Position numbers and translations under genes: made by a program. The notes beneath the pieces were generated by a model. The model had not been told where the DNA came from and did not search any database. It saw only the letters and a program-made list of their open reading frames with translations. This document shows, one piece after another, positions 1 through 6,348 of a stretch of 64,000 nucleotides of DNA (its first letter is position 1; each line of letters starts with the position of its first letter). Origin of the DNA: Oligoflexales bacterium (GTDB lineage Bacteria; Bdellovibrionota_B; Oligoflexia; Oligoflexales; JAPPIL01); assembly GCA_965215515.1 (NCBI GenBank), contig OZ244057.1, positions 320,001-384,000 of the forward strand, given 5' to 3'.

Positions 1-415
1 CTTTTTCCACGCGACCGCCGACGCGGGCGGGGATGGTTTTTTCGCGTGTCTCGGCCTGTAATACTTTCCCTAACAGGCGTGCTCGCTTCTGCATTTTCAT
101 CGTGGTGACGGTAAAATAGGCGGGACGAAAATGTTGTAGTTGTGCTTTGCGTAGTTTTATTTCCGCCACGGTGGTGGCTGTTACGGCAGGTGTGTGTGTC
201 ACCTGTGTATCTTCGTCGTCGGGGGTGACTGCAGTCAAGTTCATGCCACAAAGCGGGCATTTGCCTGGCTCGTTCTCTCGTATTTCTGGATGCATCGCGC
301 AGGTGTAAAAACTCGCGGGATGCTCATGTGCATGTGACATATTAGCGTTTTCTGCTGTGGCATGTGTAGGGAGTGCGATGACGCAAACTGACAGAAGTAA
401 AGCGAGGCTATTCAT
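1..415 (-). CDS. CusB-like RND efflux periplasmic adaptor with N-terminal heavy-metal-binding domain (5' part; runs off the window)
   Basis: Translated by hand from ATG at 415: signal-like MNSLALLLSVCVIALP, then HAHEH and YTCAMHPEIRENEPGKCPLCGMNL (YTCxMHP...GxCPxCGMxL motif). Overlaps the stop of the upstream TolC-family gene. Confidence 0.8.
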   Translation of the reverse strand, partial: MNSLALLLSVCVIALPTHATAENANMSHAHEHPASFYTCAMHPEIRENEPGKCPLCGMNLTAVTPDDEDTQVTHTPAVTATTVAEIKLRKAQLQHFRPAYFTVTTMKMQKRARLLGKVLQAETREKTIPARVGGRVEK

Positions 416-1601
416 GTAGTGCTGCTCCCTGCAGATAGCGGTGCTGTAGGTGAATGGTGGCGAGTTGAGCTTGCAGTGTCGCTTGTTTGATTAAAATATT
501 TTGTAGTTGCAGTTCTGCTTGTAGCAACTCCGCGTAGGTGGCATCACCGTGTCGATAGGAGATGAGGGCGAGACGGCGTGAGTCACGGGCGAAGTTTTGG
601 GTTTCTTGGCGCAGGATGCGCAGCTCTGTGCTGGTTTTTGCTTTGCGTCGTTGCAGGAGGTGCAGCTCGCTGCTTTTGAAATCGCGATAGGTAGCGAGCT
701 GCAGGGTGGCTTGTTGTTGTGCCTGTAGACTCGCGGCATAGGCAGCGCGGCGACTGGCGGTGACGGGTAGTGGCCAGCTGATACTGAAGGTGAACAGGTT
801 ACCGTAACCGTCGAGGTTAGGACGGTAGGCTGCGGCGAGGGTCAGGTCGGGGATACGGGCGGCGTGGTGTGCCTGTGTCGTGATCCGTGTGGCGTGCACG
901 GCGTGCTGCAACGCTTGCTCGCGGTAATCATGGCTGTCGTCGTCTGTGTCGATGTCGTCGAGCACTTGCCAGGGGATGGAGGTCGGGTCGATGGGGATGC
1001 GGCGTTGGGTTAGGTACTGTTGTTTCGCCTGCTGTTCTTGACGGGCGTGTTCTGTGTCGCTGAGAGCCGTGCGTACTTCCGCCTCTCTTATCTGGATGTC
1101 GAGTACGGCACGGCGGGTACTCTTGCCGTTGGCGTAGAGTTGTTCGGCAATTTTGCGTGTCTTGTGTAGCCAGAGGTAGTTTTCCTGTAGAATTTTGTGT
1201 TCGGCACGTAGCTTGCGTACTGTGATTAAGACCTCCCACAACGCCCGTAACAGCTTGCGCTGCTGGTGTTGTGCTTGTGCCTGCCGTTCCTGGGCGGTGG
1301 CTGCCCATGCTTGGGCAAGGTTTTGCTGGCGGGCGGTCAGGGGGATTTTTTGCATAATGCTGATTTCAAAGCCGCGTCTCGGGGTGGTATTGCCTGTCGA
1401 CCAGGCGGGTGGGAGGTTTTTCGCACTGAGTTTGACGACGGGCTCGTGCCAGGCGCGTTGTTGTGTGCCTGTGTGTTGTGCGGCCTGTGCGTGGTGGTGG
1501 GCGGCGACAACCGCGGGGTGTGGGGATAAAGACTGCACGGCGGTGCGGAAAGTAAAGCCGCTGGCAAGCAAGGTGATGCCGCTGAGAAGAGCGTTACGCA
1601 T
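408..1601 (-). CDS. TolC-family outer membrane efflux protein (CusC/CzcC-like)
   Basis: Helical OEP-like repeats (LYANGKSTRRAVLDIQ; SYRHGDATYAELLQAEL; IPDLTLAAAY...FSISWPLP), directly upstream of the CusB-like gene. Start taken at ATG 1601 (MRNALL); the ORF extension to 1676 runs through a repeat. Confidence 0.75.
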   Translation of the reverse strand: MRNALLSGITLLASGFTFRTAVQSLSPHPAVVAAHHHAQAAQHTGTQQRAWHEPVVKLSAKNLPPAWSTGNTTPRRGFEISIMQKIPLTARQQNLAQAWAATAQERQAQAQHQQRKLLRALWEVLITVRKLRAEHKILQENYLWLHKTRKIAEQLYANGKSTRRAVLDIQIREAEVRTALSDTEHARQEQQAKQQYLTQRRIPIDPTSIPWQVLDDIDTDDDSHDYREQALQHAVHATRITTQAHHAARIPDLTLAAAYRPNLDGYGNLFTFSISWPLPVTASRRAAYAASLQAQQQATLQLATYRDFKSSELHLLQRRKAKTSTELRILRQETQNFARDSRRLALISYRHGDATYAELLQAELQLQNILIKQATLQAQLATIHLQHRYLQGAALHE

Positions 1602-1608
1602 ACTTACT

Positions 1609-1637
1609 ATTACAGCACAGGTGAGGGCTGGTGACAA
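1609..1637 (-). promoter_or_regulatory. Predicted sigma70 promoter for the TolC/CusB-like operon
   Basis: Minus strand reads TTGTCA-17 nt-TGTAAT with an extended -10 TG, 7 nt before ATG 1601. The -35 box lies inside repeat copy 1. Confidence 0.55.
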
Positions 1638-1686
1638 CATTTTTGTTCGTCTCCGCGAGGTACTTCCCCCTGTCAACCTCTGCGGA
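1616..1686. repeat. 71-bp structured direct repeat, copy 1
   Basis: 68/71 identical to 2675-2745. Contains hairpins GACAACA-TTTT-TGTTCGTC and TCCGCGAGG...CCTCTGCGGA. Confidence 0.95.
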
Positions 1687-1752
1687 TCAGATCCTTACCC
1701 ACGGAACTCAGGAAGAATCAACTCGTGTTTGTAATCAGTACGAAAATTACCC

Positions 1753-1781
1753 TTTACTTTTCAATGAGTGTGACCGATAAT
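1753..1781 (+). promoter_or_regulatory. Predicted sigma70 promoter upstream of the hairpin/NYN unit
   Basis: TTTACT (1753-1758)-17 nt-GATAAT (1776-1781). Confidence 0.6.
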
Positions 1782-1787
1782 GAACAT

Positions 1788-1858
1788 GCATGTGTGGCTT
1801 GTGTTCCTTACTCCCTAGAGCTAGTGTTCAGGGTTGGAGCTTCAAGCCAACTTTTTTT
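1788..1858 (+). ncRNA. Candidate small hairpin RNA or attenuator upstream of the NYN nuclease
   Basis: TGGCTTG (1795-1801) pairs with CAAGCCA (1843-1849). Inner stems GTTCC/GGAGC, CCCT/AGGG and GAGC/GTTC close a TAGT loop. T7 follows at 1852-1858. Confidence 0.5.
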
Positions 1859-1889
1859 GTTCATCCCGTCATGAGTGGTTGGTCGTAGC

Positions 1890-2578
1890 ATGGCAAAGGT
1901 GGCGTTTGTTGTTGATGGCGGCTATTTCACAAAGGGCTACTTCAGCATTTACAAGCGTTTTCCCTCGGCTAACGAGCTTCACGACTATGTTACCGCCTTA
2001 CAGCGTCACATAACAACAACTACACATCTAGCCGCAGCGAACTCTACAGAGTATTTTTCTACGATTGTGCGCCGCTCACTACGCAGATAACGAATCCAAT
2101 AAGTGGTCGCCCTTTCGACTTATCCAATTCTGGCAAGTTTAAGCAAAATCAGGGTCTACAAGATGGTTTGAAGAGACTGCCCTTCTTCGCTGTACGGCTA
2201 GGAAAACTAATCATCCCAGATAGAAAAGATCGTGATGGAAAAAAGTGGGATAGTTGGAAGCTGAAGCTTAAAATCAGCGAGTTTGCCAAACGATCTGCTC
2301 CTCTGCAAGCAGAAGACCTGATACCAAACATCACCCAGAAGGGTGTAGATATGCGGATTGGGCTAGATATTGCGAGCATTGCCACCAAAAAGCTTTGTGA
2401 CAGGCTCGTTCTCATCTCAGGTGACACTGACATGACCCCAGCCATGAAGCTAGCCAGAACGGAAGGGCTGCAGATATTCCTTCATATGTTCACACCTACG
2501 CACAACCTCGACATGCACGCCCACGCTGATGTAATAACCGACCACCGCAAAGTGTTTCCTCTGAAAAGAGGTAAGTAG
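1890..2578 (+). pseudogene. NYN (LabA/DUF88, PIN-like) nuclease split by a 1-nt frameshift near 2010-2013 (true pseudogene or sequencing error)
   Basis: Frame 1 gives MAKVAFVVDGGYF. The shifted frame continues ELYRVFFYDCAP...FAVRLG...QKGVDMRIGLDIASIA...LVLISGDTDMTPAMKLARTEG, which has the NYN acidic motifs. Adding one A at ATAACAACAAC joins the two frames. Confidence 0.85.
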
Positions 2579-2674
2579 GGCGTGTCGCCGTTTCGTTTAA
2601 TAATTTTTTGTGTGTGCTAACCACTTGTAATAGTAGGGCAAACCTGCATCATATGAAAAGATATAACAATAATT

Positions 2675-2745
2675 CACAGGTGAGGGCTGGTGACAATACT
2701 TTTGTTCGTCTCCGCGAGGTACTTCCCCCTGCCAACCTCTGCGGA
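2675..2745. repeat. 71-bp structured direct repeat, copy 2
   Basis: 68/71 identical to 1616-1686, same orientation. Confidence 0.95.
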
Positions 2746-2860
2746 CAACACGAGCTTGTGTGTCGCGCTGTAATTATAAGTATTTACCATTAAAACATTG
2801 ATTTTATGGTAGATAGTTGATACAAGCTCTCGGTCTTTGTTTTTATAAGGAGGAATCACA

Positions 2861-4279
2861 ATGTCCGTACTCGCATCAACTCTAGGCCGCGGCTTCATCC
2901 TGTTGACTTTGGCAGTTGGGTTGCTGGCCTACCAGTTTCCGCAGAAGGAAGGTGGTAACGTGTCTTCGTGCCGTGGTGAGGGGTGTGCCGCGGGGATAAC
3001 CAGCTCTCTCAAAGACATCAGCGATGCTGTCGCTTCTGTCGTGAGGAAAGCGGAGAAAGCGTTGGTGTTTGTCACCGTGACGCGTTTGGTGCAGGCCAGA
3101 CCTAATCCTTTCGATTATTTTTTCTGGCCGCCGCGTGTGCTCCCTCGTACGCCTAAGGTCGATAAGCATAAGGTTTCGGCATCGGGTTTTTTTGTCGATC
3201 TCGACAACGGCTATATTATTACCAATGCTCATGTTGTCAAGAACGGCGAACGTATTATGCTGACGTTAGCGAACGGAGAAGAGCACGAAGCCATCGTTAC
3301 GGGTGCGGACGAAAACACTGACATTGCTATTCTTCAGGTTGAAAACTTCAGTCGCGAGGGGCTCGGTTACCTAACACTCACCAGCAGTGCTGGTTTACGC
3401 ACAGGTGATTTTGTCGTGGCACTCGGTGCACCGTTTGGTTTCAAGGCCAGTGCTTCTTTTGGCATTGTGTCAGGCCTGCAGCGCGGCAACTTACACGGCT
3501 TGACTGCCTTGGGAAACTTTATTCAGACTGACGCGGCTATCAACCCTGGCAACAGCGGAGGGCCTTTGCTCAATACACAAGGGCAAGTGGTGGGAGTCAA
3601 CTCGGCTATCATTTCGGTTTCAGGTGGCTACAACGGACTTGGTTTTGCAGTGCCTGCCGAAATTGCGAAGAAGGTTGCTCAGCAGCTGGTGGAAAAAGGG
3701 AAGTTTGAACGCGGCTATCTCGGTGTCAGGATGCAAGAGCCTGACGTGAATCTGCGTGACTCTTTCCAAGTAAGGTATGGCGAAGGGGGAGTTATTGTCA
3801 CGGAGGTAATAGGGTCTAGCCCCGCGGCACAGGCAGGTTTGCAGGTCGGTGACGTTATCGTCGCTGTCGATGGACAAAAGGTCTCTACGCCATTCGAACT
3901 GGCTAACGCGGTAGGTTTCAACCCGCCAGACACAGTGATTGAAGTGGATTACGTCAGAAATGGTGAGAAGCTAAGTATTGAGATCAAGCTGGGCACAGCT
4001 TCTGATCTACAAGAAAAGAAGCAAGAAATCACTACTCTATGGGGCTTGCAGATAATTGAAGAGGTAACAGGTGAATATGGTGAGCGCGATGTTCTTCTCG
4101 TACTCAGCAGCGATAACATCACATCCGATGTGCGCCGTGGGGATTTAATTGTCGCGGTGGATAACGTCGAAGTGCAAGGAATCGCTTGGTTAAAAAACTA
4201 CCTCCAAGATAAAAAGGAGGTAGTTCTCTATGTCAGGCGCGGTGGACAATTCGTGTTTGTCACCTTACACCAACAGTGA
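2861..4279 (+). CDS. HtrA/DegP-DegQ family serine protease with PDZ domains
   Basis: ITNAHVV, TDIA, FIQTDAAINPGNSGGPL, RGYLGV PDZ start; RBS AGGAGG upstream. Confidence 0.95.
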   Translation: MSVLASTLGRGFILLTLAVGLLAYQFPQKEGGNVSSCRGEGCAAGITSSLKDISDAVASVVRKAEKALVFVTVTRLVQARPNPFDYFFWPPRVLPRTPKVDKHKVSASGFFVDLDNGYIITNAHVVKNGERIMLTLANGEEHEAIVTGADENTDIAILQVENFSREGLGYLTLTSSAGLRTGDFVVALGAPFGFKASASFGIVSGLQRGNLHGLTALGNFIQTDAAINPGNSGGPLLNTQGQVVGVNSAIISVSGGYNGLGFAVPAEIAKKVAQQLVEKGKFERGYLGVRMQEPDVNLRDSFQVRYGEGGVIVTEVIGSSPAAQAGLQVGDVIVAVDGQKVSTPFELANAVGFNPPDTVIEVDYVRNGEKLSIEIKLGTASDLQEKKQEITTLWGLQIIEEVTGEYGERDVLLVLSSDNITSDVRRGDLIVAVDNVEVQGIAWLKNYLQDKKEVVLYVRRGGQFVFVTLHQQ

Positions 4280-4284
4280 CTTTT

Positions 4285-6348
4285 TTACATGGAGAGGGCG
4301 GCGCTATTGACCCTATGACCGAAAATTTCGGCGAGACTGCGTACGATGGTAGGCAGATCGTTGACAGGGGTGGCATCGGCAAATTCACCGCTGGTATTGA
4401 AAATCTGGTTCCAGAGACTACCCAATTGCTTTTCACCTTGGCTCCAGACGGCTTGGTTAAGCGCTATCGCTGCCCCTACTCCCACCCCTGAGGAGAGAGT
4501 GCTTAGCCCCAGCCTTTTTTTTGTGCGCATGAAATCAGCAGTGATTCTCGCGGCTTCTTCGCTTCTACCCTGTTCGACATTGTTCAAAGCCTCTTTGAGA
4601 GCCTTCATCTCGTCTCTGTGACTGCTCATTGCTTGTTTCGCTTCGTCAAATCTTTGTGATGCAGTACTCATTGTGTTTTCTATATTCGAGATATTTTCGC
4701 GCCGCGATCTTATTTCTTTCTCCTGTCTGGTAACCTTTTGATCAAAAGCATCTATCTCAGCCCGTAGGGCATTAATGCGCTCTTTTTTCAACCTACTCAT
4801 AGCATGAGTTTTATTGATTGAGGTCATACGCCGCCAGAATGTTTCTTTTTCTTGCAAGTTATGTATCTGCTGTGCAGAATACTTCCTGGCAGCCTCTGCC
4901 TCAAATAAAGCCTTTCTGGCCGCGGAAATTTCTCGATCGAGTTTTGTCAAATGGGCATCAAAACTACTGCTTCCTTCGTTCATTGATCGGCGCAGTTTGA
5001 GATTTTCTTTCCTCAGCTCAATATTTTGGAAATGCGGCAAATTATCAAAGTAAGCTTTTTCTATCGCTGTTGCTCTTTTTATTTCACTGAACGAGCGGGT
5101 GAAGTCGACGATTGTGAGTTTTTTATAAAGTTCCTCTATCTTGCTAAATTTGGCTGAAAATGTAGCATCATCCGCTAACCCATGATATTCTTGCACACCA
5201 TCGAGTAAACGTCTATTTTTGGCTGCAAGCTCAAGCTTAGCGATTTTTTCGGCCTCTTTACTGCTAGGTATTGTCAAAAATTTCCCTTCGTTAAATTTAT
5301 ACAACCACCTCTTCTGTTCCTCTAGGCGATATAACCGCTCAGCATGCTGCAAAATCTCCCCTGTCTCCTGTTTGCTACGCGCTAGCATGCCTAAGTCACT
5401 CGCTAGCGCACCTTTGTCAAAAATACCAGGTAAGACTATTCTCCTTCGAGGAAAGTTCTCTAATTTTTTCGCCAGCTCCTCATAATGTCCTCGGAAAAGA
5501 TTGTTATTCTCCCTGTAGAACGCTAAGCCAGTCCTTTTGAGATTGAATCTTCCCTCCGCAGCAAGAACACGCAGGTTATCGGCAAACGCCTTGTCAACAC
5601 TATCTACCCTTGTCGCCAACTGCCTTAGAAATTCAGCATCTACCCTATTTTCAGGTCCGATAATTCTTCGTAACCTTTTCTCCAGCGCTGCGTCTACAGT
5701 GGAAATTTTGGCCAGCACTTCATTTATTTGTCTATCATCAGCACTTTCGAAAGCAGTATTTAGCTCCTCCTCTAGTCTACTTAGTTCCAGCTTTGCTGTC
5801 TTACTTGTTGCATTATCTGCAGCCCGTGCACTACGTGCACTCGCTATCAGTTCCGTCATTTGTTCTCTCTTCATATCGAGCTGCCGCGTAAGGTCATCCC
5901 CTTGCTCAGCTAATTCCTTTATTTTCTTCGCACCAAGTACCGCATCATCTAGCTGCTTACTACCGTGCCTAGCGAACTTCACCCCAGCTCTGATACCGAA
6001 CGCGGCCAACAGTAAGCCAGCACCTGCAGCTACGTGACCACTATACTTGGTAGCAAAGGAACGACGCAGCTCATTATGCAAGAAAACAACCTCCTGCCCA
6101 TTGTCATCGAGCAGCGCGGAGCGACAAACATGGGGATCGTTAAATGCCTGTTCGCTGTAAACGGCGGTCTTTTTGCACAACAACAGCCGATACGCCTCCA
6201 TTCCATCATTAGTTGCACTGGGCACAACCCCTAGGGTCAAACGCCCATCGGTGACTGCATGTAAATCCATCACAGGGGCACGTGCCAAAGGCTTACAAGC
6301 CACCATCGCTGCACAACTAGTCAGTAGCAATAACGACCTACCCATCAC
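4285..6348 (-). CDS. Hypothetical lipoprotein with long coiled-coil centre; paralogue of 61882-62622
   Basis: Lipobox-like MVAC, two hydrophobic Gly/Ala segments around an E/K/R-rich helical region; terminal motifs shared with 61882-62622. Confidence 0.8.
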   Translation of the reverse strand: MMGRSLLLLTSCAAMVACKPLARAPVMDLHAVTDGRLTLGVVPSATNDGMEAYRLLLCKKTAVYSEQAFNDPHVCRSALLDDNGQEVVFLHNELRRSFATKYSGHVAAGAGLLLAAFGIRAGVKFARHGSKQLDDAVLGAKKIKELAEQGDDLTRQLDMKREQMTELIASARSARAADNATSKTAKLELSRLEEELNTAFESADDRQINEVLAKISTVDAALEKRLRRIIGPENRVDAEFLRQLATRVDSVDKAFADNLRVLAAEGRFNLKRTGLAFYRENNNLFRGHYEELAKKLENFPRRRIVLPGIFDKGALASDLGMLARSKQETGEILQHAERLYRLEEQKRWLYKFNEGKFLTIPSSKEAEKIAKLELAAKNRRLLDGVQEYHGLADDATFSAKFSKIEELYKKLTIVDFTRSFSEIKRATAIEKAYFDNLPHFQNIELRKENLKLRRSMNEGSSSFDAHLTKLDREISAARKALFEAEAARKYSAQQIHNLQEKETFWRRMTSINKTHAMSRLKKERINALRAEIDAFDQKVTRQEKEIRSRRENISNIENTMSTASQRFDEAKQAMSSHRDEMKALKEALNNVEQGRSEEAARITADFMRTKKRLGLSTLSSGVGVGAAIALNQAVWSQGEKQLGSLWNQIFNTSGEFADATPVNDLPTIVRSLAEIFGHRVNSAALSM

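Follow-up and report, generated by a model that had tools for sequence, protein, structure and literature searches.

Covarying leader hairpins ahead of a mobile family of NYN ribonuclease genes, with a decayed copy in an Oligoflexales genome

The Locus

The window, as the whole stretch of 64,000 nucleotides analysed here is called (contig OZ244057.1 of an Oligoflexales bacterium, positions 320,001–384,000), contains near one end a gap of 1.26 kb between a cusC-like outer-membrane efflux gene (Pfam OEP), which starts near position 1601 and runs divergently on the minus strand, and a degP/htrA-type protease gene (2861–4279), and this gap hosts a block built around a gene for an NYN-domain protein. 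On the plus strand the block begins with a sigma-70-like promoter, TTTACT-17-GATAAT (1753–1781), which matches at 9 of 12 positions and places the predicted transcription start about 7 nt before a bulged hairpin of 55 nt (1795–1849). The hairpin is followed by a T7 tract (1852–1858), with which it forms an intrinsic-terminator-like signal on the same strand, and the NYN gene opens with an ATG at 1890, 31 nt after the T7 tract. A first-pass annotation had described this order of promoter, hairpin, T7 tract and NYN gene, with some 30 nt between tract and gene, and both its placement of the elements and the spacing hold.

How strong are these signals when taken one by one? Three promoter-like sites were observed in the region where 1.8 ± 1.4 are expected, so the promoter match alone is not significant. 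Promoter-like hexamers also occur 8–30 nt before the hairpins at homologous loci, which is a weak statistic, and the −10 match found in 75 of 87 loci is weak as well because these regions are AT-rich. The hairpin is of a different quality, with a folding energy of −28 kcal/mol (z = −3.6) that none of 200 shuffled sequences reached, and the putative transcript from 1788 to 1858 folds with z = −4.2. Its outer and middle stems lead up to a conserved internal loop that reads UUAYU on its 5′ strand and UU on its 3′ strand, and above this loop lies the apical stem. Since it is bulged, a simple terminator scan missed it, and a separate scan for a hairpin plus a T-run found it and placed it at −38 relative to the ATG. 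Neither the window nor the 2.18-Mb genome (G000) contains a second copy of the hairpin. A 32-codon reading frame (1790–1888) that opens at the predicted start of the transcript, spans the hairpin and stops 2 nt before the ATG of the NYN gene was judged to be due to chance, as the other class D loci displayed (see below) have no ATG at that position.

The block is bracketed by a direct repeat of 71 nt, for which no strand is assigned and which has only two full copies in the genome. Copy 1 (1616–1686) adjoins the start of the cusC-like gene and is 96% identical to copy 2 (2675–2745), which closes an inserted block of about 1 kb. Between the two lie the NYN cassette and one copy (2576–2674, likewise without assigned strand) of a repeat of about 100 nt that is dispersed in the genome. 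This copy starts at the stop codon of the NYN gene and lies outside the RNA-nuclease module. This shorter repeat is present in eight genome copies with 92–95% identity and reaches a depth of 10–25x in contigs of the sequencing runs; four of its copies are found within a 13-kb island at about 1.154–1.167 Mb, two of them beside DDE_Tnp_1 fragments, and it may be an IS-end or a MITE-like remnant. The same island also carries PIN, SNF2, DEAD, MZB and methylase genes, and the repeat stretch matches many contig ends in a genome of the same family (G003). In two genomes of the same genus the flanking genes lie far apart and are only about 72% identical, so that no empty site can be read.

A Disrupted NYN Gene

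The protein encoded in the block is read in two frames. The N-terminal frame (1890–2090, plus strand) carries the start motif of the family with the first catalytic aspartate and runs into a stop codon after a frame change, and the C-terminal frame (about 2030–2578, plus strand) retains the core catalytic motifs intact. The latter frame matches Pfam PF01936 with E = 1.2e-7 (32.7 bits against a cut-off of 24.2), which bears out the earlier assignment to the NYN family, and phrog_5783 is matched over its full length with E = 1e-42. The invariant aspartate positions of the family as well as its QKGVDM and GD.D motifs are present when the two frames are taken together. Aligned with homologues, the frames join between 2010 and 2035, with both of them matching the homologues on either side of this zone. 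The sequence comparison indicates a reading frame that is not intact and contains a single change of one base between 2010 and 2035, on the plus strand.

Is this break real? The same letters, without gaps, are found in Logan contigs assembled from runs of two studies, X1 and X3 covering 1643–2605 and X5 covering 1893–2043, where X1 and X3 possibly derive from the sample behind the genome assembly. Because contigs from two studies agree across the break, the lesion is treated as that of a real pseudogene. Programmed frameshifting is unlikely, since inspection of the break revealed no slippery heptamer. By these sequence criteria the window harbors a member of PF01936/phrog_5783 that is present as a pseudogene, and since the nuclease gene is frameshifted, at most the RNA would still be made from this locus. 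In the same contig comparison, 68 nt inside the degP-like gene (3016–3083) were also covered by other contigs with eight differences, pointing to a paralogue or to the presence of a related organism among those sampled.

Other copies of the NYN gene are split, truncated or interrupted by an internal stop as well, namely at L268/L271 (genome G289), L257 and L269 (both G429), L014, L015, L066, L072, L080 and L149. Some of these damaged copies, those with hits to the RNA models described below, keep a recognizable hairpin. The damage may be genuine decay or stem from errors in sequencing.

An AlphaFold model of the closest full-length homologue has a pLDDT of 95. Its best match among solved structures is the NYN protein 2qip, and the predicted fold also matches the NYN domains of MARF1; a sequence match in the PDB was not found. 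With the NYN/LabA-like PF01936 proteins (NYN.COG1432 of PMC5499597, 2qip and the NYN domains of MARF1) the window protein shares the domain and the acidic residues, whereas its own subfamily has about 60 extra residues and matches phrog_5783 over the full length. In the available part of PMC5499597 the function of bacterial NYN proteins is given as unknown, and no RNA partner is mentioned there.

Leader Hairpins Across the NYN Family

Of 1,625 candidate proteins, 1,590 belong to the family of the gene at E <= 1e-3, and they are typically 205–230 residues long. Loci were sampled at 80 each from genomes, metagenomes and viral contigs, and these sampled relatives are at most 44% identical to the window protein; the closest homologues (P0002–P0008), which come from metagenomes and are 49–65% identical, lie outside the sample. 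Homologues of this family of about 220 residues (phrog_5783) nearly always have a structured hairpin between promoter and start codon. A strong hairpin with a T-run that ends 10–110 nt before the start codon was detected at 64 of the 142 loci with enough upstream DNA, and by a second measure a hairpin plus T-run is present at 37% of 196 NYN loci as compared to 2.4% of 250 control ORFs. Hairpin energy alone failed as a discriminator, with medians of −24.3 kcal/mol for NYN leaders and −22.7 kcal/mol for control upstream regions, because the control regions form structures of nearly the same stability. Much of the family has no U-tract, above all the GC-rich loci of classes B and C.

The leader hairpins fall into classes in which the letters of the loops are conserved, also across phyla, while the stems vary freely, and in all classes the RNA is a single hairpin. 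Hits of the three modelled classes (A, C and D) are found almost only directly upstream of NYN genes and on the same strand, with a median of 17 nt between the end of the model and the ATG. For class A, a search of 1.40 Mb on both strands with the model R1 yielded 140 hits at E<0.01, some of them duplicate loci of the same DNA, and 136 of these hits lie directly upstream of an NYN gene on the strand of that gene. Among 64 distinct class A sequences 85.9% of the cells pair and all 16 pairs show compensatory changes, in an alignment that was fitted to model R1, which favors the pairing figure. None of 500 shuffles reaches the class A score, and no slid register comes near it. The alignment is also rich in wobble pairs that could form on the sense strand but not on the other. 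The internal loop of class A carries AGUA on its 5′ side and GA followed by A, G or C on its 3′ side, and this arrangement, AGUA opposite GA plus one base, appears to resemble the bulged-G/loop E module. Modules of this kind are a common platform for protein binding.

Class C (model R3) yielded 35 upstream hits. Under one consensus structure it is only 67% paired with modest covariation, since its sub-variants differ in register. Class B was seen in alignments, and classes B and C have an invariant AU..AAG bulge. At a single locus, L132 (393–462), the centre of a class B/C hairpin, with its bulge and its apical stem, has the opposite orientation to the NYN gene; it is the sole locus of this kind, and no NYN gene was found there on the opposite strand.

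A search of Rfam 15 with positions 1–6000 of the window returned nothing at E<=1, and searches with 20 homologue loci at the gathering score and with ten at E<=1 returned only tRNAs and unrelated hits. As far as these searches reach, no Rfam 15 family fits the NYN leader hairpins. A conserved, covarying hairpin upstream of homologues, which the first-pass annotation had named as the test of its reading, is indeed present and extends much more broadly than expected.

It could still be imagined that the hairpin of the window is an ordinary terminator or a stray stem that happens to lie near a weak promoter match. The promoter match, which is not above expectation, and the energy comparison, which fails to separate NYN leaders from controls, would both be in line with such a chance arrangement; it is contradicted by the model searches and runs against conservation, covariation and the positional results, and we consider it practically negligible.

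The Hairpin Class of the Window

The window itself matches neither R1 nor R3. A profile search revealed that four genomes of another bacterial class (a phylum-level group) share the core of its leader, which is composed of a stem, UUAYU on the 5′ side, an inner stem CC(C/U)...GGG, UU on the 3′ side and a closing stem. The window and these four genomes gave the five seed sequences of a third model, R2, for class D. The score of the window in this model (64.1 bits) is a match by construction, as the window is part of the seed. Independent support comes from a hit outside the seed, L268/L271, with 61.1 bits; otherwise R2 found only one weak hit in 0.5 Mb. When viral contigs were scanned for the pattern of the class D core, the single hit was due to chance and lay within a coding gene. 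Class D is known from six distinct places, one of them non-seed, and is a rarer class. In an alignment of seven distinct rows 89.5% of the cells are paired and nine pairs show compensatory changes. Class D is real, but it is based on few sequences.

Hairpin Class and Protein Clade

Does the class of the RNA go together with the protein or with the host? On a FastTree phylogeny of 223 NYN proteins labelled A, C or D, the RNA class changes two times, as compared to 32–39 times in the printed shuffles. Since kin share labels, so few class changes are by themselves weak evidence and do not prove co-evolution. Stronger evidence that the hairpin class follows the protein clade and not the host is provided by the genomes G299, G429 and G289, each of which contains one class A and one class D module, with each hairpin beside its own protein clade.

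Copy numbers point to the same coupling of one hairpin to one gene. Four of five genomes have a single class A hairpin, and the fifth, G299, has two, the second of them 1.3 kb away. A dispersed palindromic repeat of the REP or MITE type would be expected in many copies. With one copy in G000, one in each of four of the five other genomes and two in G299, the hairpin is not such a repeat.

These results also bear on the suggestion that the hairpin is a generic 5′ element without a specific partner, with the 5′-terminal stem protecting the mRNA and the leaky terminator keeping the expression of the cargo gene low. The position at the extreme 5′ end, the frequent U-tract and the freely varying stems would be expected of such an element. 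A generic stem does not need the conserved loop letters found in classes A, B/C and D, and it does not account for different classes beside different NYN clades within one genome, which makes this explanation improbable.

Genomic Context and Mobility

The NYN gene stands alone, with median gaps of about 260 nt upstream and 110–130 nt downstream and without a recurrent partner. Its distribution is patchy: it was found in one of 131 genomes of the phylum of the window, in one of 41 close relatives (G000 itself) and in 12 of 301 genomes of another class, and viral contigs contain 486 confirmed NYN stretches. Among 150 sampled neighbors there are 17 tyrosine integrases, and CI-type repressors, ImmA/IrrE, HicB, Fic, restriction-modification genes and transposases were also encountered; no recombinase is consistently adjacent to the NYN gene. 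Furthermore, tRNA genes are located 0.1–2 kb from the NYN gene in four of the 20 loci scanned with Rfam (L049, L027, L155 and L169), in keeping with islands beside tRNA or tmRNA genes as places of insertion.

A particularly compact arrangement is found in the lambdoid E. coli phage ev099 (L277, 1654–4157), where the NYN gene lies between a cI-type repressor and N and has its own TTGACG-17-TAGATT site, a bulged hairpin of 52 nt, a T7 tract and, 9 nt later, the ATG. This is the slot in which lambda carries rexAB, the classical exclusion genes of that phage. With rexAB the ev099 gene has only the position in common, and there is no relation in sequence or fold. Of 5,426 complete E. coli genomes, 275 contain this DNA of ev099, 74 of them at full length, and Stx2a-converting phages make up 48 of the 65 phage records in which a homologue occurs. 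The NYN gene is a stand-alone cargo gene that is common in prophages and is also carried by mobile islands, in many phyla.

How does such a cassette move? Flanking repeats of at least 25 nt were found at 10 of 182 NYN loci and at 2 of 94 control ORFs, a small excess, and several of them start 4–15 nt after the stop codon of the NYN gene. Beside the 71-nt repeats of the window, long flanking repeats occur at L089 (321 nt), L220 (73 nt), L117 (60 nt) and L267 (117 nt). At L267, in genome G299 (1225–2808), the NYN cassette is positioned in front of a putative tmRNA gene (about 2330–2690, identified by eye), and copies of the sequence immediately upstream of this putative gene flank the cassette on either side (117 nt, 93% identity). 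A second, orphan class A hairpin lies at L267 just after the putative tmRNA gene and before a lipoprotein-like gene. The long duplications around some cassettes hint at an unexplained mode of insertion of a single-gene cassette of about 1 kb.

Could the hairpin then act at the level of DNA, as the recombination or insertion site that moves the cassette? The direct repeats around the window cassette, those of L267 beside the putative tmRNA gene together with the second hairpin copy 1.3 kb off, the excess of flanking repeats over controls and the inverted central part at L132 all speak in this direction. The repeats differ from the hairpin itself, however, and their excess over the controls is small; no recombinase keeps a constant place beside the gene, the U-tract and the promoter are signals at the RNA level, and the wobble pairs that are common in the class A alignment are valid on one strand only. 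On balance a role as DNA site is very improbable.

Possible Functions of the Leader RNA

The hairpin is a real RNA element that precedes one family of small ribonuclease genes and is absent from Rfam 15, and it is probably the enzyme's own RNA partner. The best explanation for the stretch 1753–2578 is that a mobile cassette with a single gene, for an NYN ribonuclease, is present here in decayed form, and that its transcript opens with a clade-specific hairpin.

How could such a cassette work in its intact copies? Transcription would start a few bases before the hairpin, and where a U-tract follows the hairpin most transcripts would stop there, so that a hairpin RNA of 60–70 nt would exceed the read-through mRNA. 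The hairpin could serve as the cognate ligand that holds the NYN nuclease inactive, either as pseudo-substrate or as inhibitor, and the same hairpin on the read-through mRNA could provide feedback. The nuclease, carried as cargo of prophages and defence islands, might be freed when the supply of the RNA fails, for example upon phage attack, and might then act as a toxin in defence. The observations to which this mechanism appeals are the conserved architecture, the covariation, the RNA class that follows the protein clade, the single-copy coupling and the mobile and prophage context. With so many loci devoid of a U-tract, a separate short RNA cannot be how the whole family works. No processing site was predicted at the leader, and in PADLOC models of the NYN type matched only weakly and in part.

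A type III-like module, in which an excess of hairpin RNA restrains the NYN nuclease, is tentatively favored, at a confidence that stays short of an even chance. This is the reading that the first-pass annotation had offered, and it stands in part: the covarying hairpin, the match between hairpin class and protein clade and the contexts of prophage immunity regions and islands fit an RNA partner and a role in conflict, whereas the tandem-repeat antitoxin and the ToxN-type toxin of such systems are absent, the U-tract is found in part of the family only and the gene in the window is a pseudogene. The more far-reaching view, that NYN gene and hairpin constitute a new and widespread RNA-antitoxin module of abortive infection, with a new toxin fold, a single-hairpin antitoxin and mutually insulated classes, housed in temperate phages including the rexAB slot and in islands of many phyla, is rather unlikely.

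Alternatively, the hairpin may be a cis-acting autoregulatory leader, which the nuclease binds or cuts on its own mRNA to limit its own synthesis, with neither a role for the free RNA nor a toxin; this possibility is nearly as likely as the type III-like module. The hairpin always lies in cis, on the NYN mRNA and at its 5′ end, many loci have no U-tract, and the clade-specific classes together with the two-module genomes fit specific self-recognition equally well. Against a purely autoregulatory leader it can be argued that a very stable hairpin followed by U7–9 before the start codon would terminate transcription without the protein, a feature that feedback alone does not need, and that the prophage immunity-region and island context points to a function in conflict over one in housekeeping.

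Autoregulatory leaders of ribonucleases are known from E. coli rne and rnc, and Regnase-1 acts on a stem-loop in its own mRNA. The NYN leader has in common with them a structured, enzyme-specific hairpin in the mRNA of the nuclease itself; it differs in that it usually doubles as a terminator, is placed at the extreme 5′ end and is part of a cargo gene that moves horizontally and not of a core RNase gene.

Relation to Type III Systems and Significance

In type III systems, according to the available part of the review PMC5086642, one promoter is followed by a non-coding RNA, a Rho-independent terminator and the gene for an endoribonuclease, an order that leads to an excess of the antitoxin over the protein. 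The NYN cassette shares with ToxIN, AbiQ, CptIN and TenpIN the succession of promoter, RNA, terminator and nuclease gene, the association with phages and prophages and the pairing of RNA variants with protein variants. A terminator ahead of the toxin gene is evident in the window, in the form of the T7 tract 31 nt before the ATG; across the family it is confined to the 64 of 142 loci, or 37% of 196, mentioned above. The tandem repeat array of type III antitoxins has no counterpart, as the NYN RNA is a single bulged hairpin without a predicted pseudoknot, and Tandem Repeats Finder reported no repeats between 1550 and 2900. The toxin differs as well, being of the NYN fold and not of the ToxN/AbiQ/CptN/TenpN type. 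A description of ToxN-type toxins as PIN-fold proteins differs from what the available part of PMC5086642 says. Measured against that same part of the review, the NYN cassette falls outside the type III families and at most works like one.

The literature, as covered by listings and abstracts, contained nothing on an NYN leader RNA, on an NYN type III system or RNA-antitoxin, or on NYN genes in the rex slot. In addition, the main text of PMC5737381 makes no mention of DUF88, LabA, PF01936, nuclease or PIN; its supplements may list motifs by neighboring gene.

What would the hairpin mean for the biology of these proteins? A family-specific, covarying RNA that is tied one-to-one to the gene gives the bacterial NYN proteins a testable partner. 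If the RNA restrains the nuclease, the type III principle would come to include a second nuclease fold and a simpler RNA, and a prophage-borne defence candidate, carried by 275 of the 5,426 complete E. coli genomes, would be added to those of bacteria. If the hairpin is an autoregulatory leader instead, it would still represent a new and broadly distributed family of cis-regulatory RNAs.
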